Assembly (NCBI RefSeq): GCF_054482525.1
Contig: NZ_CM137006.1
Reading direction: 5' to 3' (one strand)
DNA: 64,000 bases
Below the pieces are notes generated by a model, which was not told the origin of the DNA, made no database searches, and saw only the letters and a list, made by a program, of their open reading frames with translations. Shown one piece after another: positions 4,420-42,617 of the stretch; position 1 is the first letter of the stretch; every line of letters starts with the position of its first letter. Made by a program: the position numbers and the translations under genes.

Positions 4420-6052
4420 CCTACTGATAGCGATGATAATCTTTGCGCTAATCTGGCCTGCAACCGCGCTCAGAGCGGCAGTGAGCAAAACAACCTGGGC
4501 GGATGCTCCGGCACGCGAGTTTGTGTTTGTCGAAAACAACTCAGACGACAACTTTTTCGTCACGCCTGGCGGGGCGCTGGATCCGCGCCTGACCGGTGCC
4601 AACCGCTGGACCGGTTTAAAATACAATGGTTCAGGAACCATCTATCAGCAAAGTCTCGGCTACATTGATAACGGTTACAACACCGGCCTTTATACCAACT
4701 GGAAGTTTGATATGTGGCTGGAAAATTCACCAGTTTCATCTCCTTTAACTGGCTTGCGCTGCATCAACTGGTACGCAGGGTGTAATATGACCACCAGTCT
4801 TATCCTGCCGCAAACCACCGACGCCAGTGGATTTTATGGCGCGACGGTGACCAGCGGCGGCGCGAAGTGGATGCACGGCATGTTGTCAGACGCGTTTTAC
4901 CAGTATCTGCAACAAATGCCCGTCGGCAGCAGCTTTACAATGACCATCAATGCCTGCCAGACCTCTGTGAACTATGACGCCAGCAGCGGCGCACGCTGTA
5001 AGGATCAGGCCTCCGGCAACTGGTATGTTCGCAACGTCACCCATACGAAAGCAGCAAATCTGCGGTTGATAAATACCCACTCGCTGGCGGAAGTATTTAT
5101 CAACAGCGACGGAGTACCGACTCTGGGCGAAGGGAACGCCGACTGCCGGACGCAAACCATCGGCAGCCGTTCAGGATTAAGTTGTAAGATGGTTAACTAT
5201 ACCCTGCAAACAAACGGACTCAGCAACACCTCAATCCATATATTCCCGGCGATCGCCAACTCGTCGTTAGCCTCGGCCGTCGGGGCGTACGATATGCAGT
5301 TCAGTCTGAATGGCAGTTCATGGAAACCGGTGAGCAATACCGCCTATTACTACACCTTCAACGAGATGAAGAGCGCAGACTCGATCTATGTTTTCTTCTC
5401 GAGCAACTTCTTTAAGCAGATGGTGAACCTCGGGATCAGCGATATCAACACCAAAGATCTATTCAACTTTCGCTTTCAGAACACCACATCACCGGAGTCT
5501 GGCTGGTATGAATTTTCTACCTCCAACACGCTGATTATCAAACCCCGTGATTTCAGCATCAGTATTATCTCCGATGAATATACTCAGACACCGTCGCGGG
5601 AGGGATATGTCGGCAGCGGCGAGTCGGCACTCGATTTCGGCTATATCGTAACCACCAGCGGTAAAACAGCTGCCGACGAAGTGCTGATCAAGGTGACCGG
5701 ACCCGCGCAGGTGATTGGCGGACGCTCCTATTGTGTCTTCAGCTCCGATGACGGTAAGGCGAAAGTACCGTTCCCGGCGACGCTTTCCTTTATTACCCGC
5801 AACGGAGCTACAAAAACCTACGATGCCGGGTGCGATGATAGCTGGCGGGATATGACCGATGCGCTGTGGCTGACTACACCGTGGACTGATATCTCTGGCG
5901 AAGTGGGGCAGATGGATAAGACCACTGTCAAATTTTCGATTCCAATGGATAACGCCATTTCGCTGCGTACGGTAGATGATAACGGCTGGTTTGGCGAAGT
6001 CAGCGCTTCAGGAGAGATTCATGTTCAGGCGACGTGGCGTAACATTAACTAA
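4409..6052 (+). CDS. ecpD: Pilus tip adhesin EcpD
   Basis: 547 aa with signal peptide; overlaps ecpC stop (translational coupling); operon position. Confidence 0.82.
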
Positions 6053-6731
6053 GGCCCTGCTGACAGCGGTCTGTATGCTGGCGGCACCTTTGACACAGGC
6101 GATTTCGGTCGGCAATCTGACATTTTCGCTGCCGTCCGAGACTGACTTTGTCAGCAAACGTGTAGTGAATAACAACAAAAGCGCACGGATATACCGTATT
6201 GCCATCAGTGCTATTGATAGCCCGGGCAGCAGTGAATTGCGCACCCGACCGGTGGATGGTGAACTACTTTTCGCCCCCCGCCAGCTGGCGTTGCAGGCTG
6301 GTGAGAGCGAGTATTTTAAATTTTACTATCATGGTCCACAGGATAACCGCGAGCGCTACTACCGGGTCTCATTTCGCGAGGTCCCCACTCGCAACCAGAC
6401 AAGACGCAGCCCAACCGGCGGCGAGGTCAGCACGGAGCCGGTGGTGGTGATGGATACCATTCTGGTAGTACGACCACGTCAGGTTCAGTTTAAATGGTCC
6501 TTCGACCAGGTGACAGGAACGGTAAGTAACACCGGCAACACGTGGTTTAAGCTACTGATTAAACCAGGATGTGATTCGACCGAAGAGGAAGGCGACGCCT
6601 GGTATCTACGTCCGGGAGACGTTGTTCATCAGCCTGAGTTACGTCAGCCGGGGAATCATTATCTGGTCTATAACGACAAATTCATTAAGATTAGCGATTC
6701 CTGTCCGGCTAAGCCCCCTTCGGCGGACTAA
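6021..6731 (+). CDS. ecpE: Pilus chaperone EcpE
   Basis: Start trimmed to [27 protein letters not shown] inside ORF 5976..6731; paralog of EcpB. Confidence 0.78.
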
Positions 6732-7043
6732 GACTTATCCATCGGTCGAGGGAAGAACTCCACCTCAGAGACTCAAAAATCGTTTAAATAATGTGGAAGC
6801 GATCGTCAATGTCACCTGTAACGATGGGCTTTCTCATATGTACACCATAGTGTTCAGGAGACACGGAAAGGTACCAGGCAGCCTGCTAACGAGTGGTTTA
6901 TTCACGAATTAGTACGTAAAATCGGTAACGGCTGGAAATCATTCAATACTCACACTATCGAAAGTTCCCCAGCCAACCGCGGTACGTTCTTACATACGAT
7001 GTACCGCTGTTCTCTTTACGATTTAAAGCTGTACTGGTGAATT

Positions 7044-7373
7044 ATGAGCAATCTGAATCCATGCATGACGTGTGGTGCCTGTTGTGCATTTTTCCGCGTC
7101 TCTTTTTACTGGGCCGAAGCCGACGATGCTGGCGGTACCATTCCCGCCAGGCTCACGGAACAAATATCCCCTTTTCACCGATGCATGAGCGGTACCAATC
7201 AGAAAAACCCCCGATGTATTGCCCTTGCAGGAACACCGGGCAAAAATGCCTGCTGCACGATATATAAAAATCGATCGTCCACGTGCAGAGAATTCGCCAT
7301 GTCTGGTGAGAACGGAGTCGTCAATGAGGCTTGCAATCGTGCAAGAGCTAAATACGGGCTGACACCGTTATAA
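7044..7373 (+). CDS. ykgJ: Cys-rich UPF0153-family putative Fe-S/zinc protein YkgJ
   Basis: 109 aa with CxxCxxCC motif ([10 protein letters not shown]) and later CC pair; conserved position between ecp and yagU. Confidence 0.78.
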
Positions 7374-7396
7374 ATATGCAATAATTAATTGCACTG

Positions 7397-7430
7397 CCCC
7401 GCCAGCTATAATCGCGGGGCTTCGTTTTTC
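7397..7430 (+). terminator. Rho-independent terminator after ykgJ
   Basis: GC stem ccccgc...gcgggg followed by cttcgttttt. Confidence 0.5.
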
Positions 7431-7579
7431 AGGGATAACAAAACCCGAAACTTCTTCCATCTGCCAGCAACAATGCCTCTTCCTCTATAGTGTTCTCCGG
7501 ATCTACAGCATCCTGAAGTAGCGCGATGTACTCACTAGCTATCTGTTTCAGAAAGTAAAAAGCAATGTTTTTAACCTAT

Positions 7580-7612
7580 AAAAATGGCGCTGTATTTGCG
7601 CCATTTTTATTA
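7580..7612. terminator. Hairpin terminator downstream of yagU, probably bidirectional
   Basis: aaaaatggcgc-tgtatt-tgcgccattttt: perfect stem flanked by A-run and T-run. Confidence 0.5.
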
Positions 7613-7621
7613 TTCAATGCA

Positions 7622-8236
7622 TTATCTGTTTGAGCCTAAAGGGATCTCAGGGTCTGGCTCATGAGTAATTCTGTTTCGTAAATCTCTGCGAATAATTTCA
7701 ATGGACCAGAACCAGACTAAATGTCCAAAAATTTCAGAAACATTCTCATACCACGGGAGATCAAACAGAGGTGGCGTCAGTCCCATGAGAGGGAATGAAA
7801 TCATATGAACAAAAAGTTGGGCTAAAGCACCTGCCAGTAAGCCCTGCCAGAGTTTAATTTTTGGAAATACTTCAGCGACCACACAATAACCGACAGCAAA
7901 CACTATCGAAAAGATAATGTGCGTAACACCAACCCAGTTAAAGACATGCCCGGCAAAGGTATAAACAGCCGCATTGGGATCTGTCAGTCCCAACCAATCC
8001 CGAAGAAAAATGTACGGAGGATTGAGAAAGTTACGGGAGCAATCAATTTGGCCTGCAGCCCTGATTAATGATTCCGGGCCACACGCTGCATTAAACATAT
8101 CCACCGGGCTACGTGGCGGCAATGGAACTTCAGCCCCCCACTTCACAAATGCGGAAACAACGCCAGCAATCAGCCCAATGAATGCAGCAAGACCATAACG
8201 TCTGCGGTTCGGTGGAGTTTGTTCAAATATATTCAT
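7622..8236 (-). CDS. yagU: Inner-membrane protein YagU (DUF1440)
   Basis: 204 aa with several hydrophobic helices; matches remembered YagU; conserved position next to the pao operon. Confidence 0.82.
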
Positions 8237-8642
8237 ATCTACCCTGCTTGTACCATTATGTTATACACCTCTTCAGGAGTATTCATAAAACAAGACAAAT
8301 GTAAAGAACTGTATTGTTTTGTATAACAAAATAGTTTCCTAATCGCCAATGAATATAAGCACCATCATTTCTCCCTATTTTTATGTTAGAAGTGACAAAG
8401 ATTTGTAGGGTGATGCAGAGCTGACAATCACAGGTTTCCTTATCGGTTTTTGCATCGCACAACTAAAGCAATAAACGAGCTCCCGTCATCGGCGAATATG
8501 AATTAATTAGCCGGGCTCATAGCTGCATTCGCGTTTTAAGAATAATCCTCCTGCTCTCACCGACTATGCTTAACATTTAAAAAAGCATCAGCACTCTCGC
8601 AACGCTCTCTTATTTTCCCCTTTAGAATACCGGAGGCCTGGT

Positions 8643-9332
8643 ATGAGCAACCAAGGCGAATACCCCGAAGATAATCGGGTTGGGAAGCACGAGCCGCACG
8701 ATTTTAGTTTGACCCGTCGCGATCTGATTAAAGTCAGCGCCGCAACGGCGGCGACCGCCGTGGTTTATCCTCATTCTACGCTTGCAGCAAGCGTTCCGGC
8801 AGCTACACCCGCGCCCGAGATAATGCCCCTGACACTTAAGGTGAACGGCAAAACCGAGCAGTTGGACGTTGATACCCGAACCACGCTACTGGACGCTTTG
8901 CGTGAAAATCTGCATCTGATCGGTACCAAGAAAGGTTGCGATCACGGGCAGTGCGGAGCCTGTACCGTGCTGGTCAATGGTCGCAGGCTTAATGCCTGCC
9001 TGACGCTTGCAGTCATGCATCAGGGGGCAGAGATCACCACCATTGAAGGCCTGGGTTCACCAGAGAATCTTCACCCCATGCAGGCGGCCTTTATCAAGCA
9101 TGATGGCTTCCAGTGCGGCTACTGCACCTCCGGGCAAATTTGCTCATCAGTTGCGGTGCTAAAAGAGATTCAGGACGGCATTCCCAGTCACGTCACGGTC
9201 GATTTGGTTTCCCCTCCAGAAAGAACGGCCGATGAGATCCGTGAACGTATGAGCGGCAACATCTGTCGCTGTGGTGCATACGCTAACATCCTTGCCGCCA
9301 TTGAAGATGCTGCGGGGGAGATAAAATCATGA
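8643..9332 (+). CDS. paoA: Periplasmic aldehyde oxidoreductase 2Fe-2S subunit PaoA
   Basis: Tat signal ([16 protein letters not shown]), ferredoxin-type cysteine motifs ([24 protein letters not shown]). Confidence 0.9.
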
Positions 9333-10285
9333 AGGCGTTTACCTATGAACGAGTGAACACCCCGGCCGAGGCGGCACTTAGCGCTCAGCGCGTACCCGGC
9401 GCAAAATTTATCGCTGGCGGGACCAATCTGCTGGACCTGATGAAGCTGGAAATTGAAACGCCAACCCACCTTATCGATGTGAACGGGCTCGGGCTCGATA
9501 AGATTGAAGTGATCGACGCGGGTGGGCTGCGCATCGGCGCACTGGTACGGAACACCGACCTGGCAGCTCACGAGCGCGTGCGTCGTGATTACGCGGTACT
9601 CTCCCGCGCCCTGCTCGCTGGCGCGTCTGGTCAGTTACGCAATCAGGCAACCACCGCAGGTAATCTGCTCCAGCGCACGCGCTGCCCCTATTTTTACGAC
9701 ACCAATCAGCCCTGCAATAAGCGCCTGCCCGGGAGCGGCTGCGCGGCACTTGAAGGCTTTAGCCGTCAGCACGCGGTGGTAGGCGTAAGCGAAGCCTGCA
9801 TTGCCACCCATCCGAGCGATATGGCGGTCGCAATGCGGTTGCTGGATGCGGTGGTGGAAACCATCACGCCGGAGGGAAAGACTCGCAGTATCACACTGGC
9901 TGATTTTTATCACCCTCCGGGAAAAACGCCGCACATTGAAACCGACCTGCTTCCCGGTGAGCTTATCGTTGCGGTGACGTTACCTCCGCCGCTCGGCGGA
10001 AAACATATTTACCGTAAGGTGCGCGATCGCGCCTCCTACGCCTTTGCCCTGGTATCGGTCGCAGCGATTATTCAGCCTGACGGCAGCGGGCGCGTCGCGC
10101 TGGGCGGAGTAGCACATAAGCCCTGGCGCATTGAGGCTGCGGATGCTCAGCTATCCCAGGGGGCGCAGGCCGTATATGACGCGCTGTTCGCCAGCGCCCA
10201 TCCCACCGCTGAAAACACCTTTAAACTCCTGTTGGCGAAGCGAACGCTTGCCTCCGTACTGGCTGAAGCGAGGGCACAGGCATGA
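9329..10285 (+). CDS. paoB: Aldehyde oxidoreductase FAD-binding subunit PaoB
   Basis: 318 aa, start overlaps paoA stop; FAD-binding CO-dehydrogenase-like medium subunit ([13 protein letters not shown]). Confidence 0.9.
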
Positions 10286-12480
10286 AATTTGATAAACCCG
10301 CAGGGGAAAACCCGATCGATCAGCTGAAGGTTGTCGGTCGTCCCCATGACCGCATCGACGGACCGCTGAAAACTACCGGCACGGCACGCTACGCCTACGA
10401 ATGGTATGAAGAAGCTCCCAACGCCGCCTATGGCTATATCGTCGGTTCCGCCATTGCCAAAGGACGCCTCACCGCCCTCGATACGGACGCCGCGCAAAAA
10501 GCGCCGGGCGTACTGGCTGTCATTACCGCCAGTAACGCCGGGGCACTCGGCAAAGGCGACAAAAACACCGCCAGCCTGTTAGGCGGCCCCACTATTGAGC
10601 ACTATCATCAGGCCATTGCGCTGGTAGTGGCTGAGACCTTCGAACAGGCGCGAGCGGCGGCCTCGCTGGTGCAGGCGCACTATCGCCGTAATAAAGGAGC
10701 TTACTCCCTGGCGGACGAAAAACAGGCCGTCAGTCAGCCGCCGGAAGACACGCCCGATAAAAACGTTGGTGACTTTGACGGGGCTTTCACCTCCGCTGCG
10801 GTGAAGATTGATGCTACCTACACGACCCCGGACCAGAGCCATATGGCGATGGAGCCGCATGCCTCGATGGCCGTCTGGGATGGAAATAAGCTTACCCTCT
10901 GGACCTCAAATCAGATGATTGACTGGTGCCGCACCGATCTGGCAAAAACGCTGAAAGTGCCCGTGGAGAATGTGCGTATTATCTCCCCGTATATCGGTGG
11001 AGGGTTTGGCAGCAAGCTGTTCCTGAGAAGCGATGCGCTGCTGGCGGCCCTCGCCGCCCGTGCGGTGAAACGTCCGGTTAAAGTGATGCTCCCCCGCCCC
11101 ACTATTCCCAATAACACCACGCACCGCCCCGCCACCCTTCAGCACTTGCGTATCGGTGCCGACCAGAGCGGGAAAATCACTGCTATCTCACATGAAAGCT
11201 GGTCCGGAAACCTGCCCGGCGGCACGCCGGAAACGGCGGTACAGCAAAGCGAATTTCTTTACGCAGGGGCGAATCGTCATATCGGCCTGCGGCTCGCCAC
11301 GCTTGATTTGCCGGAAGGGAACGCCATGCGTGCGCCCGGCGAAGCCCCCGGTCTGATGGCGCTCGAAATCGCGATCGATGAACTGGCGGAAAAAGCGGGC
11401 ATCGATCCCGTCGAGTTTCGCATCCTGAATGACACTCAGGTTGACCCCGCCGACCCGACGCGCCGCTTCTCTCGCCGTCAGCTTATCGAGTGCTTGCGCA
11501 CCGGAGCGGATAAATTTGGCTGGAAGCAGCGCAACGCCACACCCGGACAGGTACGCGACGGAGAGTGGCTAGTCGGCCACGGCGTCGCGGCGGGCTTTCG
11601 CAATAATCTGCTGGAAAAATCGGGGGCTCGGGTTCACCTCGAACCAAACGGCACCGTTACCGTGGAAACGGACATGACCGACATTGGCACCGGCAGCTAC
11701 ACCATTCTGGCCCAGACGGCAGCGGAAATGCTTGGCGTACCGCTGGAGCAGGTTGCGGTTCACCTCGGCGATTCCAGTTTCCCGGTTTCTGCGGGGTCTG
11801 GTGGACAATGGGGCGCAAATACCTCCACCTCCGGCATTTACGCCGCCTGTGTGAAGCTTCGCGAAATGATTGCCTCGGCAGTCGGGTTTGATCCTGAGCA
11901 GTCGCAGTTTGCCGACGGCAAGATTACCAACGGTACCCGAAGCGCCATGCTACATGAGGCCACCGCAGGCGGCAGACTGACAGCGGAAGAGAGCATTGAA
12001 TTCGGAACACTGAGCAAGGAGTACCAGCAGTCGACCTTTGCCGGGCATTTTGTGGAGGTCGGCGTGCATAGCGCGACGGGAGAAGTTCGGGTCCGGCGTA
12101 TGCTCGCTGTGTGTGCTGCAGGACGCATCCTGAATCCGAAAACTGCACGCAGCCAGGTCATTGGCGCAATGACTATGGGCATGGGTGCGGCACTGATGGA
12201 GGAGCTGGCGGTGGATAACCGTTTGGGCTACTTCGTTAATCACGATATGGCGGGGTATGAGGTGCCGGTCCATGCGGATATCCCAAAACAGGAGGTGATT
12301 TTCCTGGATGATACCGACCCCATCTCCTCCCCGATGAAGGCCAAAGGTGTCGGTGAGCTGGGCCTGTGCGGCGTGAGCGCGGCTATCGCCAACGCGGTGT
12401 ATAACGCCACCGGTATTCGGGTACGGGATTATCCCATCACTCTGGATAAGCTGCTCCATAAACTGCCGGATGTGGTTTAA
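10282..12480 (+). CDS. paoC: Aldehyde oxidoreductase molybdopterin subunit PaoC
   Basis: 732 aa xanthine-dehydrogenase-family large subunit; start overlaps paoB stop. Confidence 0.9.
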
Positions 12481-12489
12481 GGAGGAACA

Positions 12490-13446
12490 ATGTCATACTC
12501 GCTTTTTGACAAAGACGAGCACTGGCATAAGCCAGAGCAGGCGTTTCTCACCGATGACCACCGGACCATTCTGCGCTTCGCCGTAGAGGCGCTAATGTCC
12601 GGTAAAGGAGCGGTGCTGGTGACGCTGGTGGAGATACGCGGCGGCGCGGCGCGCCCGCTCGGGGCTCAGATGGTGGTGCGCGAAGATGGTCGTTACTGCG
12701 GTTTTGTCTCTGGCGGCTGCGTGGAGGCCGCTGCCGCTTTTGAAGCGCTGGAGATGATGGGCTCAGGCCGCGATCGCGAAATTCGCTATGGCGAAGGTTC
12801 GCCGTGGTTTGACATCGTTCTGCCCTGCGGCGGTGGGATCACGCTGACGCTCCATAAACTACGCTCGGCACAGCCTCTGCTCGCCGTGCTGAACCGCCTG
12901 GAACAGAGAAAACCGGCGGGTCTGCGCTACGATCCGCAAGCACAATCGTTGGTGTGCCTGCCCACGCAAACCCGGACGGGCTGGAATCTCAATGGCTTTG
13001 AGGTGGGGTTCAGGCCATGCGTCAGGCTGATGATTTACGGACGTTCTCTTGAGGCGCAGGCAACCGCGAGTCTTGCAGCAGCCACAGGCTATGACAGCCA
13101 TATCTTCGATCTTTTTCCGGCCTCAGCCAGCGCTCAGATCGATACCGATACGGCGGTCATTTTGCTGTGCCATGATCTCAACCGGGAGCTGCCAGTGTTG
13201 CAGGCCGCGCGAGAAGCAAAACCCTTTTATCTCGGCGCATTGGGCAGCTATCGAACCCACACTTTACGTCTGCAAAAGCTCCACGAGCTGGGATGGTCCA
13301 GGGAGGAGACAGCGCAAATCCGGGCACCCGTCGGGATATTCCCCAAAGCCCGGGATGCGCATACTCTGGCACTCTCCGTGCTGGCAGAAGTCGCCTCTGT
13401 ACGTCTCCATCAGGAGGAGGATTCATGCCTGCCCCCGTCGTCCTGA
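12490..13446 (+). CDS. paoD: Molybdenum cofactor insertion chaperone PaoD (XdhC family)
   Basis: 318 aa XdhC/CoxI-like; last gene of the pao operon. Confidence 0.85.
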   Translation: MSYSLFDKDEHWHKPEQAFLTDDHRTILRFAVEALMSGKGAVLVTLVEIRGGAARPLGAQMVVREDGRYCGFVSGGCVEAAAAFEALEMMGSGRDREIRYGEGSPWFDIVLPCGGGITLTLHKLRSAQPLLAVLNRLEQRKPAGLRYDPQAQSLVCLPTQTRTGWNLNGFEVGFRPCVRLMIYGRSLEAQATASLAAATGYDSHIFDLFPASASAQIDTDTAVILLCHDLNRELPVLQAAREAKPFYLGALGSYRTHTLRLQKLHELGWSREETAQIRAPVGIFPKARDAHTLALSVLAEVASVRLHQEEDSCLPPSS

Positions 13447-13520
13447 TCCTTGCGGCCGGGCGTGGAGAGCGCTTTCTCGCCTCCGGGGGAAATACCCATA
13501 AATTAAGAGAAAAATCTGCA
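13437..13520 (+). pseudogene. N-terminal remnant of a MobA/MocA-like molybdenum cofactor nucleotidyltransferase
   Basis: Frame starting at ATG 13437 reads MPAPVVLILAAGRGERFLASGG (LAAGxGxR nucleotidyltransferase signature), then loses similarity and terminates; overlapped by 3' end of the convergent MFS gene. Confidence 0.35.
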
Positions 13521-13625
13521 GTAGCCGTTTTAGAAAATCACCTAAATCGTTTAAAAGAGCACCCAACCCATAGTGGGCGCTCATCGCCTTGTGTAACTTA
13601 TTCAGCAACGCGCGCCCTCGCCGGA

Positions 13626-14819
13626 CTAAAGCGCACCGGCCTTCTGGCGTGCGGTAACAAAGGTCAGTACGCCAGCGCAAAGGAGCAGCACGCTACTCAT
13701 AGCAAACGTGCTCTGCCAGCCAAGGCGGTCAAATACGATGCCTCCTGCTGTTGATCCAAGGGCGATGGAGAGCTGAATCACCGCGACCATGAGCCCGCCT
13801 CCGGCTTCGGCGTTGTCAGGCAACGTACGCGCAATCCATGTCCACCATCCGGTTGGCGCGGCGGTGGCCAGCATGCCCCAGAGTCCTAACAGCAGCGAGA
13901 CCGTCCAGACGTGATGCCCGGTCAGCATCAGACCGATAGCAATGACGGCCATCAGTCCGGGTATGGCCATCAGCGTGGGGTAGAATTTTCTGTTGAGAAA
14001 TGCCGAAACAACCAGCGTGCCAATAAAACCGGCCACGCCGATAATCAGCAAAATCAACGACAAGCCTAAGGAATTAACCCGTGTCACCGACTCCAGAAAC
14101 GGGCGCACATAGGTGAATAGTGCAAACTGCCCCATGAAAAACAGGCAGCAGGCTATCATGCCGACCACAACCATGCGGCGGCTAAATAAGCGGAATACCG
14201 CGCCACATGAAGTGTGGCTTTTATTCGCATCCATGCTTGGCAGGCTGATGCACTGCCAGATAAAGGCGACAACCGCGATGGGCACCAGGCACAAGAAAGC
14301 GCCTCGCCATCCGACCGTAGCCCCCAGATAGCTTCCCAGCGGTGCGGCCACGACCGTCGCCAGCGCATTACCGGCGTTGAAAATTGCCAGCGCACGCGTG
14401 ACCTGATGCTGCGGCACCAGACGAATCGCCGTTGCCGCTGACATCGACCAGAATCCGCCAATAGCCACACCAATCATCGCACGACCGACCATATACATCA
14501 GATAACTGGAAGCCAGCGCAATAATAAGCCCCGATACGGCCATCAGAACCGTCATCCCCAGCAGCAGGAACTTACGATTCATCTTTCCAGCTAGCGTTGA
14601 AAGCGTCAGGCTGGTCAGAACCGCCAGCGCGCCGGAGATAGCAATCCCCTGCCCTGCCAGCCCCTCCGTCACGCCTAAATCGCGGGTAATCGGCGTGAGC
14701 AGGCTGACGGGCATAAATTCAGAAGCAATCAGCACAAACACGCACAGGGTCATGGCAAAAATACCGCCCCAGTATGCGCGCTGATGATGAGGTGATAGTG
14801 TTTGGCTTAGTGTCGACAT
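13626..14819 (-). CDS. MFS family transporter, about 12 TM
   Basis: 397 aa, highly hydrophobic with regularly spaced helices, MFS-like motifs. Confidence 0.8.
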   Translation of the reverse strand: MSTLSQTLSPHHQRAYWGGIFAMTLCVFVLIASEFMPVSLLTPITRDLGVTEGLAGQGIAISGALAVLTSLTLSTLAGKMNRKFLLLGMTVLMAVSGLIIALASSYLMYMVGRAMIGVAIGGFWSMSAATAIRLVPQHQVTRALAIFNAGNALATVVAAPLGSYLGATVGWRGAFLCLVPIAVVAFIWQCISLPSMDANKSHTSCGAVFRLFSRRMVVVGMIACCLFFMGQFALFTYVRPFLESVTRVNSLGLSLILLIIGVAGFIGTLVVSAFLNRKFYPTLMAIPGLMAVIAIGLMLTGHHVWTVSLLLGLWGMLATAAPTGWWTWIARTLPDNAEAGGGLMVAVIQLSIALGSTAGGIVFDRLGWQSTFAMSSVLLLCAGVLTFVTARQKAGAL

Positions 14820-14894
14820 AGTGAAATTTCACAAAGATCAGGATAAAAGCCACCAGCCTATGGCCGGTGGCTTTGCATCAATTCAGGAGAGGTT

Positions 14895-16031
14895 TTATTT
14901 CAGTTTGGTCTGGAAAAATTGTTCGAACTTCGCGAAAGGTATTTTTCCGGCCACGTTATCGTACAGGTCCACGTGATTTGCCCCTGGTACCACCACCAGC
15001 TCTTTGTCGTTACTGCCAACCACCTTGTAAGCATCTTCAGCAAAATAGCGTGAATGCGCTTTCTCACCGGTCACAATCAGCGTCGGGATGGTGATTTCAC
15101 TGGCGTAGCTCAACAGCGGCATATTCATAAATGACAGCGGCATCGTTGCCGTCCACGCCCCGGTAGAGTTAACGGAACGTTCGTGGAAGCCGCGCGGCAT
15201 GCGATAGTAGTCAAAGAACTCTTTCAGTACCGGATGAGGATTTGCCGGCAGCGTTTCTGGCAGAATGCGCTCGCCCGCACTGACCTTGCCGTTGCTGTCG
15301 ACATTAATATCATGACCACCGTGAGCGAACGTTCCGCTCTGCGCATCCTTCCAGCGCTGTTCATTCAGATATTGCAGAACGGCACGACGGTCGGCGGTAG
15401 AATAACGGTCTTTGCCATCCCCCACACCATGACCCATCGCCCGGCTCATGTCATACATCACGCTGGTAGCTACCGCTTTAACGCGGGTATCCATCGCCAC
15501 GTCGTTCAGCGCCATGCCGCCCCAGCCACAAATACCGAGCAGCCCGATACGGTTGCGATCTACCTCTTTTTGCAGCCCTAAGAAATCCACCGCCGCGCTG
15601 AAATCTTCAGTGTTGATATCCGGTGAGGCGACGTTTCGCGGATAGCCGCCGCTTTCCCCGGTGTAAGAAGGATCGAACGCCAGGGTAACAAACCCTCGTT
15701 CCGCCAGCGTCTGCGCATACAAGCCGCTGGATTGCTCTTTCACCGCGCCAAATGGCCCACTGACCGCAATCGCCGCCAGCTTGCGATCGCCACGGTCTTT
15801 AGGCAGGTAAAGATCGCCCACTAAGGTGATGCCATATCGGTTCGGGAACGAGACTTTACGGTGATCGACTTTCTGGCTCTCGGCGAACGTTTTATCCCAT
15901 TTATCTGCCATGGACACAGGGGCATTAGGATTGGTTGAATCAGCATAACTCATTGTCGTGACTCCACTTAATGATGCGAAAAGCAGCATGGTCGGCATCG
16001 CGGTTTTTAGCGTGCGGGTGAAGGCTTTCAT
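14895..16031 (-). CDS. Secreted alpha/beta-hydrolase fold protein
   Basis: Start trimmed to MKAFTRTL signal peptide; GxCxWGG nucleophile-elbow-like motif (GICGWGG); 378 aa. Confidence 0.65.
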   Translation of the reverse strand: MKAFTRTLKTAMPTMLLFASLSGVTTMSYADSTNPNAPVSMADKWDKTFAESQKVDHRKVSFPNRYGITLVGDLYLPKDRGDRKLAAIAVSGPFGAVKEQSSGLYAQTLAERGFVTLAFDPSYTGESGGYPRNVASPDINTEDFSAAVDFLGLQKEVDRNRIGLLGICGWGGMALNDVAMDTRVKAVATSVMYDMSRAMGHGVGDGKDRYSTADRRAVLQYLNEQRWKDAQSGTFAHGGHDINVDSNGKVSAGERILPETLPANPHPVLKEFFDYYRMPRGFHERSVNSTGAWTATMPLSFMNMPLLSYASEITIPTLIVTGEKAHSRYFAEDAYKVVGSNDKELVVVPGANHVDLYDNVAGKIPFAKFEQFFQTKLK

Positions 16032-16218
16032 AAAAATCCCCATAAAAAACAACAGAGAGATACAGGTTTCCGACGGACAACGCTGCGGTGCTTTACTTTG
16101 ATGGGGTCATTATAGTGAGCAGAATTAGTGCTGATTAGGGGGCGATTAATGCTAAGATTAATACCATATTGTTATAAATTAATGCGGAGATTGCCGGCAT
16201 GAAGGGGGGGATGTTTCA

Positions 16219-17103
16219 ATGGCGAAAAGGGAGAACTACAACGAGCTGTACCTGTTTATGCAGGTGGTGCGGGAAGGCAGCTTTACCGCAGCGGCTCAGC
16301 GGCTGGGTCTTGCTCAGTCAGGAGTCAGCCGTTCTGTTCGCGAGCTTGAAGAAAGGCTGGGCGTCCAGCTGCTAGTGCGCACCACGCGTAAACTGTCGCT
16401 GACACAAGCAGGCGAGCAGCTCTACCAGAAGACGGCATCTGGATTTGAAATGTTAGATCTTGGGCTTGCCACGCTGGCGCACTATCGAGAGACGCCCTCC
16501 GGCACGGTGCGTATCAATGCCAGCCAGCACGCGATTGATAAATGCCTGCTGCCAAAGCTGGCGGTATTTAAACAGAGATATCCTGATATCCGGCTTGAAC
16601 TGATAAATGAGAGCCGGTTCGTCGATATCATCGAGGAAAGATTCGATGCAGGTGTCCGCCTGGGGCCTGAAGTCGGCCAGGGTATGGTCGCGGTACGCAT
16701 CACGCCCGATATGGAGATGGCAATTGTGGGGACTCCGGAACATTTTCGTCGTTATGGTTTTCCGCAAACCCCGGCGGATTTAAAGGCGCATCCCTGTATC
16801 GCCTATCAGTTTGCCGACGGCAGCGTATACCAGTGGGAACTCAATCAGGATGATAAAAAAATCACTCATCGCCCTGAAGGGCAATGGGCCCTATCCGACA
16901 GCTATATGGAAGCAGAAGCCGCCCGGCTGGGCCTCGGATTGGCCTATGTTCCTGTTGAACTGGTCGCGGATGATTTAGAACACGGTAACCTTATCAGGGT
17001 GTTGCAGCGTTACAGCCTGCGAATGGAGGGATTGTTTCTCTATTACCCTCATCGCAACGTCTCCCCCGCTCTGCGGATGGTCATTGATACATTGAAAATC
17101 TGA
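16219..17103 (+). CDS. LysR-family transcriptional regulator
   Basis: N-terminal HTH (FMQVVREGSFTAAAQRLGLAQSGVSRSVRELEERLGVQLLVR), 294 aa; divergent from the hydrolase gene. Confidence 0.85.
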   Translation: MAKRENYNELYLFMQVVREGSFTAAAQRLGLAQSGVSRSVRELEERLGVQLLVRTTRKLSLTQAGEQLYQKTASGFEMLDLGLATLAHYRETPSGTVRINASQHAIDKCLLPKLAVFKQRYPDIRLELINESRFVDIIEERFDAGVRLGPEVGQGMVAVRITPDMEMAIVGTPEHFRRYGFPQTPADLKAHPCIAYQFADGSVYQWELNQDDKKITHRPEGQWALSDSYMEAEAARLGLGLAYVPVELVADDLEHGNLIRVLQRYSLRMEGLFLYYPHRNVSPALRMVIDTLKI

Positions 17104-17793
17104 ACGTTAACAACGACCGACTCTTTACTGTGCAAAATTGTGTCAGGTAGTCCCTCTGCGTTCAATTCCAGGGTCTGTACACCCTGCTTTGAGCGAGAAA
17201 GAGGGGACTATCCAGCAATGGAGATCACCCAAAAGAAAAAACCACCTGGCTCCCTCGACAACCTTCATCCAGGCATTTAGCCTCAATCAACATTTTTATA
17301 TCTGTCAGGTTACTTCATGATGAAAACTGATCATTATCGTTGTTTTTGTTGCAATAGTAGAATACGCGTATTTATTCCTCCATCTCTATTAATAACGGCA
17401 ATAAACTGTTCACTTCACTGATATTTAAAATATGTATCCTTTTCAAGCTGTTCAGCGGCGTAAGAAAAAGCATTAATTATGAATTCGACGATTTAACCAT
17501 TTCAGTCTGATTGGTAATCATCTGTGATTAATGCTGGTCTATTGATTACGCCAGCATTAACCGCTTAGGGATGTATTCTTCCTGTTCATATAGCCCTCGA
17601 AAAAGAGAGAAAATAAAACTGTGTCCAATATTAATTTACCACTCCAGACCGAAGCATCGGTGGGATTAGCAGGACGACTGGTACAGAAGGATGGTATAGC
17701 GTCATTTGTCGGGCATTCCATTGCCATAATAATGACAATTTTGAATCAATAGACATGCTTCTTGATCATGTCTTAAAAATTAGACCATGAGCC

Positions 17794-18024
17794 TTACGAA
17801 GCATCATTTTTACTGACTGGTATTAACTTTGCTATCATATAAACTCTATTCTTAAAAAACGCGCCCAGAATTTTATATGATTTTCCTTGTTTTGCTGCCT
17901 GTAAAGAAATTTCTTTTTCAGTGCTGTCGATGGTTGAACCGACGGCAGTAATCGTTTTGGCGACGCTACTGAAGGATATTAAAGACAGTGTAACCACAAC
18001 AATTAAAGAATAGATAATATTCAT
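17794..18024 (-). CDS. Small secreted DUF1471 (YhcN/BhsA-like) protein
   Basis: Start trimmed to MNIIYSLIVVVTLSLISFSSVA signal peptide; about 76 aa; AT-rich context. Confidence 0.4.
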   Translation of the reverse strand: MNIIYSLIVVVTLSLISFSSVAKTITAVGSTIDSTEKEISLQAAKQGKSYKILGAFFKNRVYMIAKLIPVSKNDAS

Positions 18025-42534: not shown

Positions 42535-42558
42535 TTTGAAATGGTGCCGATAATAGGA
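42535..42558. repeat. Proximal att-like repeat overlapping the tRNA-Thr 3' end
   Basis: tttgaaatggtgccgataatagga; partner at 18971..18992. Confidence 0.5.
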
Positions 42559-42617
42559 GTCGAACCTACGACCTTCGCATTACGAATGCGCTGCTCTACC
42601 AACTGAGCTATATCGGC
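42542..42617 (-). tRNA. thrW: tRNA-Thr (anticodon CGU)
   Basis: Reverse complement reads GCCGATATAGCTCAGTTGGTAGAGCAGCGCATTCGTAATGCG...TTCGACTCC...CACCA: cloverleaf arms, CGT anticodon in the loop, encoded CCA. Confidence 0.85.

Follow-up and report, generated by a model that had tools for sequence, protein, structure and literature searches.

The aldehyde oxidoreductase PaoABC contains the cytosine dinucleotide form of the molybdenum cofactor (MCD), which is made by MocA, a protein that also interacts with PaoD, and paoD has been described as the last gene of its operon. Pairs of an xdhC gene and a mocA gene are common in operons of the enzyme family to which PaoABC belongs (PMC2997495), and both in pucA-pucB of B. 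subtilis and in xdhC-mocA of Arthrobacter nicotinovorans pAO1 the chaperone gene is followed by a co-transcribed MocA homolog (PMC2997495). The relatives described below, in which paoABCD is followed by a transferase gene, have exactly this layout, whereas the pao operon of E. coli appears to have lost the second partner and to rely on an unlinked MocA.

Two further comparisons are close at hand. Like MocA (YgfJ) and other members of Pfam family PF12804, the intact relatives of the sequence described here are single-domain proteins of ~184 aa, and the sequence itself keeps the N-terminal nucleotide-binding loop LAAGxGxRF...HKL; it differs from MocA in that only 27 of ~184 residues are left and in that the intact relatives reach 72-85 bits against an equivalog cutoff of 186 bits. 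Neumann et al. in 2011 reportedly took the xAAG form of this loop as the MocA type, as opposed to the LAGG type of MobA. YagP (b0282) of K-12, a LysR-family substrate-binding fragment or pseudogene, shares the start codon, the Shine-Dalgarno sequence and the first 25 codons with this truncated frame (hereafter the stub), but the K-12 stub continues in frame into a LysR sequence, whereas in the DNA analyzed here (a 64-kb stretch, referred to as the window) it is joined to the tail of a hydrolase gene. The names given to YagP in the sources do not reflect a transferase origin of its N-terminus; in the literature that we searched there was no description of the stub, and no paper combined yagP with the word 'pseudogene'.

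A truncated nucleotidyltransferase frame overlapping the end of paoD

The region belongs to the E. coli chromosome, and window positions 13000-14000 are 100% identical to strain 1190, where RefSeq gives the gene order ykgJ, yagU, paoA, paoB, paoC and paoD, followed by an MFS transporter and an alpha/beta hydrolase on the opposite strand and then by a LysR regulator. No feature is annotated by RefSeq between paoD and the MFS gene at this identical locus. An open frame of 109 codons nevertheless begins at the end of paoD (Table 1). The original prediction had this frame starting at 13437; the frame is real, but its start is the ATG at 13425-13427, 12 nt earlier, so that 22 nt are shared with the 3' end of paoD; an AGGAGG at 13412-13417 precedes this ATG by 7 nt.

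Table 1. Features around the 3' end of paoD in the window.
Feature	Position	Strand	Basis or remark
paoD (XdhC-family molybdenum cofactor insertion chaperone)	12490..13446	+	ORF list; RefSeq annotation of strain 1190
Shine-Dalgarno-like AGGAGGAGGA	13412..13421	+	inside paoD, 3-7 nt 5' of stub start; read from sequence
MocA-like (PF12804) nucleotidyltransferase gene remnant, codons 1-27, MPAPVVLILAAGRGERFLASGGNTHKL	13425..13505	+	family HMM, nt identity, blastn
Whole 109-aa open frame	13425..13754	+	stub, then hyd2 tail, spacer, antisense MFS 3' end
CATAA microhomology of K-12-lineage deletion	13497..13501	+	deletion itself absent from window
Last 20 nt of alpha/beta-hydrolase gene hyd2: AA GAG AAA AAT CTG CAG TAG, (K)EKNLQ-stop	13505..13524	+	L097 alignment
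hyd2 3' flank	13525..13603	+	alignment to L097
MFS transporter gene, 375 aa in RefSeq (longest ORF to 14819)	13626..14753	-	ORF list, RefSeq; first gene of module

To assign the stub to a family, an HMM of 26 full-length enterobacterial homologs was searched against 2,426 six-frame pieces of the window. The single match was the stub (E = 2e-10), which covers profile positions 2 to about 28 only, with the next best piece at E = 0.65; no other pieces of the transferase gene were found in the 64 kb by this search. The claim of an LAAGxGxR nucleotidyltransferase N-terminus of about 25 residues is borne out at a length of 27 codons, and the stub peptide VVLILAAGRGERFLASGGNTHKL shows the hydrophobic strand, AAGxGxR[FM] and the downstream HKL/K motif of a nucleotide-binding loop. 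Its residues are identical to those of P0004 (from Enterobacter oligotrophicus), P0005 and P0008 at 25 of the 27 positions, and its DNA matches nt 1-81 of the intact gene in L003 by blastn (E = 2e-18).

The alignment with intact-gene genomes that had been suggested as a check places 13300-13505 at 87-91% nucleotide identity to the closest loci (L003, L083-L087 and L089-L092). All of these alignments stop at 13502-13505, and those with more distant loci stop no later than 13505. Past this point there is no transferase-family homology, and the 109-aa ORF has no Pfam or NCBIfam match at E <= 0.01, in keeping with the earlier remark that the frame 'then degenerates'. A complete domain (about 160 residues, above the Pfam gathering threshold) is absent from the 109-aa ORF, whereas the intact relatives, with 85-91 bits, exceed the cutoff of 27. 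The window thus carries syntenic homology to one end of a gene whose remainder is absent, and, judged by its sequence, the stub is a remnant that would not count as a PF12804 member in the functional sense.

An exact-sequence look-up placed the 109-aa ORF in a cluster of 133 member sequences on >1,000 contigs, all of them E. coli, where the sources name it 'hypothetical protein' or, in a few records, 'LysR-type regulator'. The ORF is without any LysR sequence despite its public name 'transcriptional regulator LysR-type', and this name is probably an error that spread from YagP via the common 25-residue N-terminus.

The intact gene in enterobacterial relatives

That a full gene once followed paoD is supported by at least 26 enterobacterial genomes, among PaoD-relative loci taken from one genome per species, in which paoD is directly followed by a codirectional full-length gene of 180-199 aa whose start overlaps it in the same way; the 22-nt overlap of the window was observed in L083, L089 and L091 as well. 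The intact protein of Leclercia begins MSSPVVLILAAGRGERFLASGGKSHKLDALL..., nearly the same residues as the stub, and the intact gene after paoD is also found in Enterobacter oligotrophicus, in an 'unidentified bacterial endosymbiont' genome, in two metagenome contigs and in a Salmonella contig. A protein search with the closest full-length relative retrieved a tight group of 184-aa proteins (mutual identity 82-98%), on whose contigs (E. oligotrophicus, the endosymbiont genome and the metagenome contigs) the gene is part of a five-gene operon, paoA-paoB-paoC-paoD-transferase. Over their entire length these five-gene operons are 88-91% identical in nucleotide sequence to the window up to 13502-13505, while the gene content 3' of the transferase varies among them and often includes integrases. 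The plasmid collection held no informative intact copy, only distant homologs from Pantoea and Ralstonia and E. coli stubs.

The intact relatives match PF12804 at E of about 1e-25, and their best NCBIfam model is MocA/YgfJ (TIGR03310), followed by the DVU_1551-family and PucB. The TIGR03310 scores, 84.7 bits for L003 and 72.2 bits for L004, stay below the equivalog cutoff of 186.45 bits, by which the relatives are to be regarded as MocA-like paralogs of a distinct subfamily rather than as MocA equivalogs or orthologs. Of the predicted identity as a cofactor cytidylyltransferase, assignment to the MocA-like PF12804 family stands; cytidylyltransferase activity of the lost gene is something that we infer from the family, from the neighboring XdhC-family gene paoD and from the dependence of PaoC on MCD. 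On these grounds the intact relative would most likely convert Mo-molybdopterin to the MCD needed by PaoC. That E. coli tolerates the loss of the gene would be explained by its unlinked MocA (YgfJ), which synthesizes MCD and, according to published work, passes it on to PaoD, a redundancy that we presume rather than observe.

The pao operon of the window (8458-13505) is 88-91% identical in nucleotide sequence to those of E. oligotrophicus and other non-Escherichia genomes (L003, L083-L085, L089, L091), and a species-representative scan found no other Escherichia paoD relative at >=90% identity. The distribution of these sequences suggests that the operon may have moved horizontally.

The right side of the junction

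The identity of the DNA to the right of the stub was settled by a closer E. coli comparator, L097 (CU532-9). Local-alignment and shuffle tests of 13506-13628 against L086, L094 and L003 gave scores that 1-17% of shuffles equaled. Window 13505-13603, in contrast, aligns with L097 9001-9099 at 83.8% identity (E = 8e-21), and the matching site belongs to the annotated gene of an alpha/beta hydrolase of 354 aa, which we call hyd2, and consists of its last 20 nt (...FLKEKNLQ-stop) and the 79 nt that follow the stop. In the window, 13507-13524 encodes EKNLQ-stop, the typical end of hyd2 homologs, out of frame relative to the stub; in L086/L087 and in L094 a hyd2 homolog and the MFS gene converge. 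The junction therefore lies at 13504-13506, with transferase nt 1-81 as the left parent, hyd2 from its sixth-from-last codon as the right parent and the A at 13505 common to both (1 nt of microhomology).

Two other placements of the junction were considered and rejected. Further transferase sequence past 13505 was suggested by the family HMM alignment, which extended to '...AVLENHL', and by GTTTTAGAA at 13527-13535, which matches nt ~106-114 of the gene and keeps the frame if a gap of one codon is allowed, but the same string occurs in the 3' flank of hyd2 in L097 (CCATTTTAGAAGATCAC), within the 83.8% alignment. A junction at GG(A/G)AATACCCA(T/C) was suggested because GNTH in stub codons 21-25 recurs in hyd2 around its catalytic His (KGNTHFPF), but the following CATAAATTA matches the transferase, and hyd2 homology begins at 13505.

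Both parents of the junction occur together in L086/L087, a contig labelled Salmonella enterica that carries TraI and an integrase. Here a truncated paoD is followed by the transferase, a hydrolase (-), a response regulator, a histidine kinase, a cupin, a carboxymuconolactone-decarboxylase (CMD)-family gene and a flavodoxin-like gene, then by hyd2 and by the MFS (-), hydrolase (-) and LysR (+) trio as in the window. L086 4819-5674 aligns with window 12647-13505 at 92.9%, and L086 12881-16148 with window 13638-16919 at 84.6%; transferase and hyd2 are 7.1 kb apart, and the segment missing from the window, measured on L086, is 5675-12775 (7,101 bp). Transferase, hyd2 and MFS gene thus stand in L086/L087 in the same order and orientation as their remains in the window. 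Since transferase, hyd2 and trio are colinear in L086/L087, one deletion would have taken the rest of the transferase together with roughly seven genes.

The proposed loss by deletion has therefore both of its ends visible, in transferase codon 27 and in the last 20 nt of hyd2. The accompanying idea that the MFS/hydrolase/LysR segment was juxtaposed to paoD is correct insofar as the deletion accounts for its present place; the trio was probably not an import but already a downstream neighbor, which the deletion brought up to paoD, and about seven other genes would have been lost as well. The list of deleted genes is read from L086, L097 and L003, which differ in the middle genes, and the content of the E. 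coli ancestor may differ from it; the order and timing of events proposed here likewise rest on other genera and on the L086 contig with its mobile-element character. The MFS gene was also said to end inside the frame, which is true of the open frame to 13754, but the stop codon of the MFS gene (13626-13628, minus strand) lies 120 nt beyond the stub.

The hyd2 remnant and the MFS gene, which converge, are separated by an imperfect hairpin, GAGCACCCA (13557-13565) and TGGGCGCTC (13574-13582), which in a fold of the minus strand forms a 9-bp stem followed by UUUU. A terminator function of this hairpin is possible on the predicted fold; a consensus terminator and promoter scan of 13300-13800 called nothing, the hairpin included.

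L097 itself, from E. coli O4:H5 CU532-9, carries a second, partial copy of the lost block at 5930-9244, near ydeP-ydeS and beside a filamentous-phage-like gene set (Zot-family). In this copy a truncated hydrolase gene, a cupin and a CMD-family gene are followed by an intact hyd2 and by what is left of the MFS 3' end; the block is colinear with L086 at 83-86%. Such a partial copy is carried by 64 E. coli records, which match window 13505-13603 at 80-90% identity at this other locus.

Distribution in E. coli and the YagP fusion

To assess the occurrence of the transferase in E. coli, we used the intact L003 gene as the query of a sensitive blastn search of 5,426 complete genomes, in none of which was transferase sequence found beyond the first 81 nt. 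The 3' end of paoD is present in 3,598 of the 5,426, with the window-type junction in 912 of these and a K-12-type junction in 2,685. Because no match extends past 81 nt and these two junctions account for 912 and 2,685 genomes, loss of the transferase is fixed among the sampled E. coli; the intact arrangement was not found in any Escherichia genome. About a third of the complete E. coli genomes are without the paoD 3' end.

K-12 matches the window only up to 13501 and continues with a C-terminal fragment of a LysR gene. The O157-type locus L088 has the arrangement of the window and, a few kb further, an intact 299-aa LysR gene (WP_000687183). At the point of fusion the intact LysR gene of L088 reads ...GAATCATAAGTGTATC, the stub ...ACCCATAAATTA and K-12 ...ACCCATAAGTGTATC; the two BLAST segments of the K-12 fusion overlap by 5 nt (CATAA), and the fusion is in frame. 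Taken together, the sequences of L088, the stub and K-12 at CATAA indicate that a second deletion, in a genome of the window/O157 type, gave rise to the K-12 type; mapped against L088, this deletion spans 6,130 bp between two CATAA pentamers. The resulting K-12 yagP ORF (L002 6426-6836) has 136 aa and consists of the first 25 transferase codons and the C-terminal 111 residues of the LysR regulator; the sources name it YagP, 'putative LysR family substrate binding domain-containing protein'.

Variants of the stub were compared among three lineages only, with one nucleotide deleted and two residues substituted in the O157 type and, in K-12, a single substitution, R16C, in the motif. In the O157-type stub, a change from ACCCAT to ACCAT (L088 about 5860, window about 13496) shifts the frame, and the substitutions are E15K and A19T. 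Such changes are as would be expected without selection, in what is a small sample of three lineages.

Origin of the remnant and alternative explanations

Collectively, the family, synteny and junction data make it very probable that 13425-13505 is the non-functional remnant of a fifth pao-operon gene left by deletion, with YagP as a later product of the same locus. The fifth gene would have encoded a ~184-aa MobA/MocA-like nucleotidyltransferase, translationally coupled to paoD via the 22-nt overlap. In the E. coli lineage a single deletion would then have joined transferase codon 27 to the sixth-from-last codon of hyd2, taking with it the hydrolase, the two-component pair, the cupin, the carboxymuconolactone-decarboxylase-family gene, the flavodoxin-like gene and nearly all of hyd2, and bringing the already neighboring MFS/hydrolase/LysR module beside paoD. 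The leftover start codon and ribosome-binding site would open the 109-aa frame, which bears no family signature, and in the K-12-type lineage the second deletion of 6,130 bp between CATAA pentamers would have fused 25 codons of the stub to LysR, giving YagP.

If so, the pao operon was originally one of five genes, and the sampled E. coli genomes have lost a cofactor-modifying transferase, a loss that fits the dependence of PaoABC maturation on the unlinked MocA. This explanation would also account for the yagP start and its first 25 codons and for the mis-annotation of the 109-aa ORF as a LysR-type regulator, and it implies that two nested deletions shaped the variable region between pao and thrW. 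Pseudogene fragments left by deletion are an ordinary kind of feature; this one is unannotated in RefSeq, and its annotation as a pseudogene fragment would be useful.

The preservation of the start region raises the question of whether something there is still used. It is very unlikely, in our estimate, that a chimeric fifth product (109 aa, or the 136-aa YagP) is still translated from the pao operon and that one of the two has acquired a role; were it so, a LysR effector-domain fragment could be expressed in step with the aldehyde oxidoreductase, and selection to keep the coupled start region would be the reason why deletions ended repeatedly at codons 25-27. The broader reading, in which the stub is kept as a coupled small ORF, as a 3' element for paoD termination or mRNA stability, or for an active 109-aa or 136-aa product, draws on a strong Shine-Dalgarno sequence and ATG that are preserved, on two independent deletions whose ends are no more than 4 nt apart (13501/2 and 13504-6) and which left 13447-13501 untouched, and on frames that remain open for 109 aa in the window and 136 aa in K-12, each ORF occurring on >1,000 contigs. 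However, the first 22 nt of the stub and its Shine-Dalgarno sequence are also paoD sequence and under constraint from that gene anyway, the nearness of the two junctions is explained by the CATAA microhomology, the read-through part runs opposite to the MFS gene as antisense sequence with no family signal, and both the O157-type stub (frameshifted, with two amino-acid replacements over its 27 codons) and the K-12 stub (R16C in the motif) have changed within the coding part. With these points in hand we judge retention for function highly improbable.

Insertion, too, could separate the start of a gene from its end: the MFS/hydrolase/LysR segment, or a larger island beside thrW, might have entered an intact transferase gene whose 3' part survives downstream. 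The roughly 29 kb from paoD to the tRNA-Thr gene vary between strains and hold mobile and defence genes, and the LysR/hydrolase/MFS trio occurs in many unrelated contexts, both of which are compatible with such an event. Yet the 3' part of the transferase gene is missing from the 64-kb window and from all complete E. coli genomes searched. The right flank is the end of hyd2, a gene that L086 has 7 kb downstream of the transferase with strand and order unchanged, and this is the signature of an internal deletion; an insertion is accordingly very improbable. Finally, a chance match of the LAAGxGxR-like string in the out-of-frame paoD 3' end and intergenic DNA, for which one could cite the shortness of glycine-rich nucleotide-binding motifs and the lack of a Pfam or NCBIfam match for the 109-aa ORF, is in effect excluded by a run of 27 consecutive matching residues (25 of 27 identical to P0004, P0005 and P0008), a start position relative to paoD as in the relatives, colinear nucleotide identity of 87-91% to the closest intact genes and a family HMM hit (E = 2e-10) that is unique in the window.

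The MFS/hydrolase/LysR module and the region toward thrW

Deletion of the transferase and its downstream neighbors leaves the trio (window 13626-17103) as the next genes after paoD. Its conserved sequence starts at about 13601, and alignments with L086, L093, L094 and L096 begin at 13601-13638 with 84.6-88.5% nucleotide identity. Among the loci compared (L028, L036, L054, L093, L094 and L096), the LysR/alpha-beta hydrolase/MFS trio occurs in unrelated neighborhoods on several enterobacterial contigs, and by this distribution it appears to behave as a portable three-gene module. It also lies directly beside a paoD homolog in Frateuria (on the downstream side, inverted relative to E. coli) and in Pseudoxanthomonas (on the upstream side). 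From these positions next to paoD homologs, a functional connection of the module to the aldehyde oxidoreductase may be suspected.

Just 3' of the intact LysR gene, RefSeq (L001) marks a ykgR fragment (17314-17382) and a LysR substrate-binding fragment (17671-17901), the latter with no nucleotide similarity to K-12 yagP. The tRNA-Thr(CGT) gene (thrW) is at 42542-42617 (-), about 29 kb downstream of paoD, and K-12 retains a 54-nt copy of the thrW end beside intF (CP4-6 prophage junction). The stretch between paoD and thrW (13506-42540) is strain-variable; strain 1190 carries there a RipA-family protein and a retron St85 reverse transcriptase with its effector.
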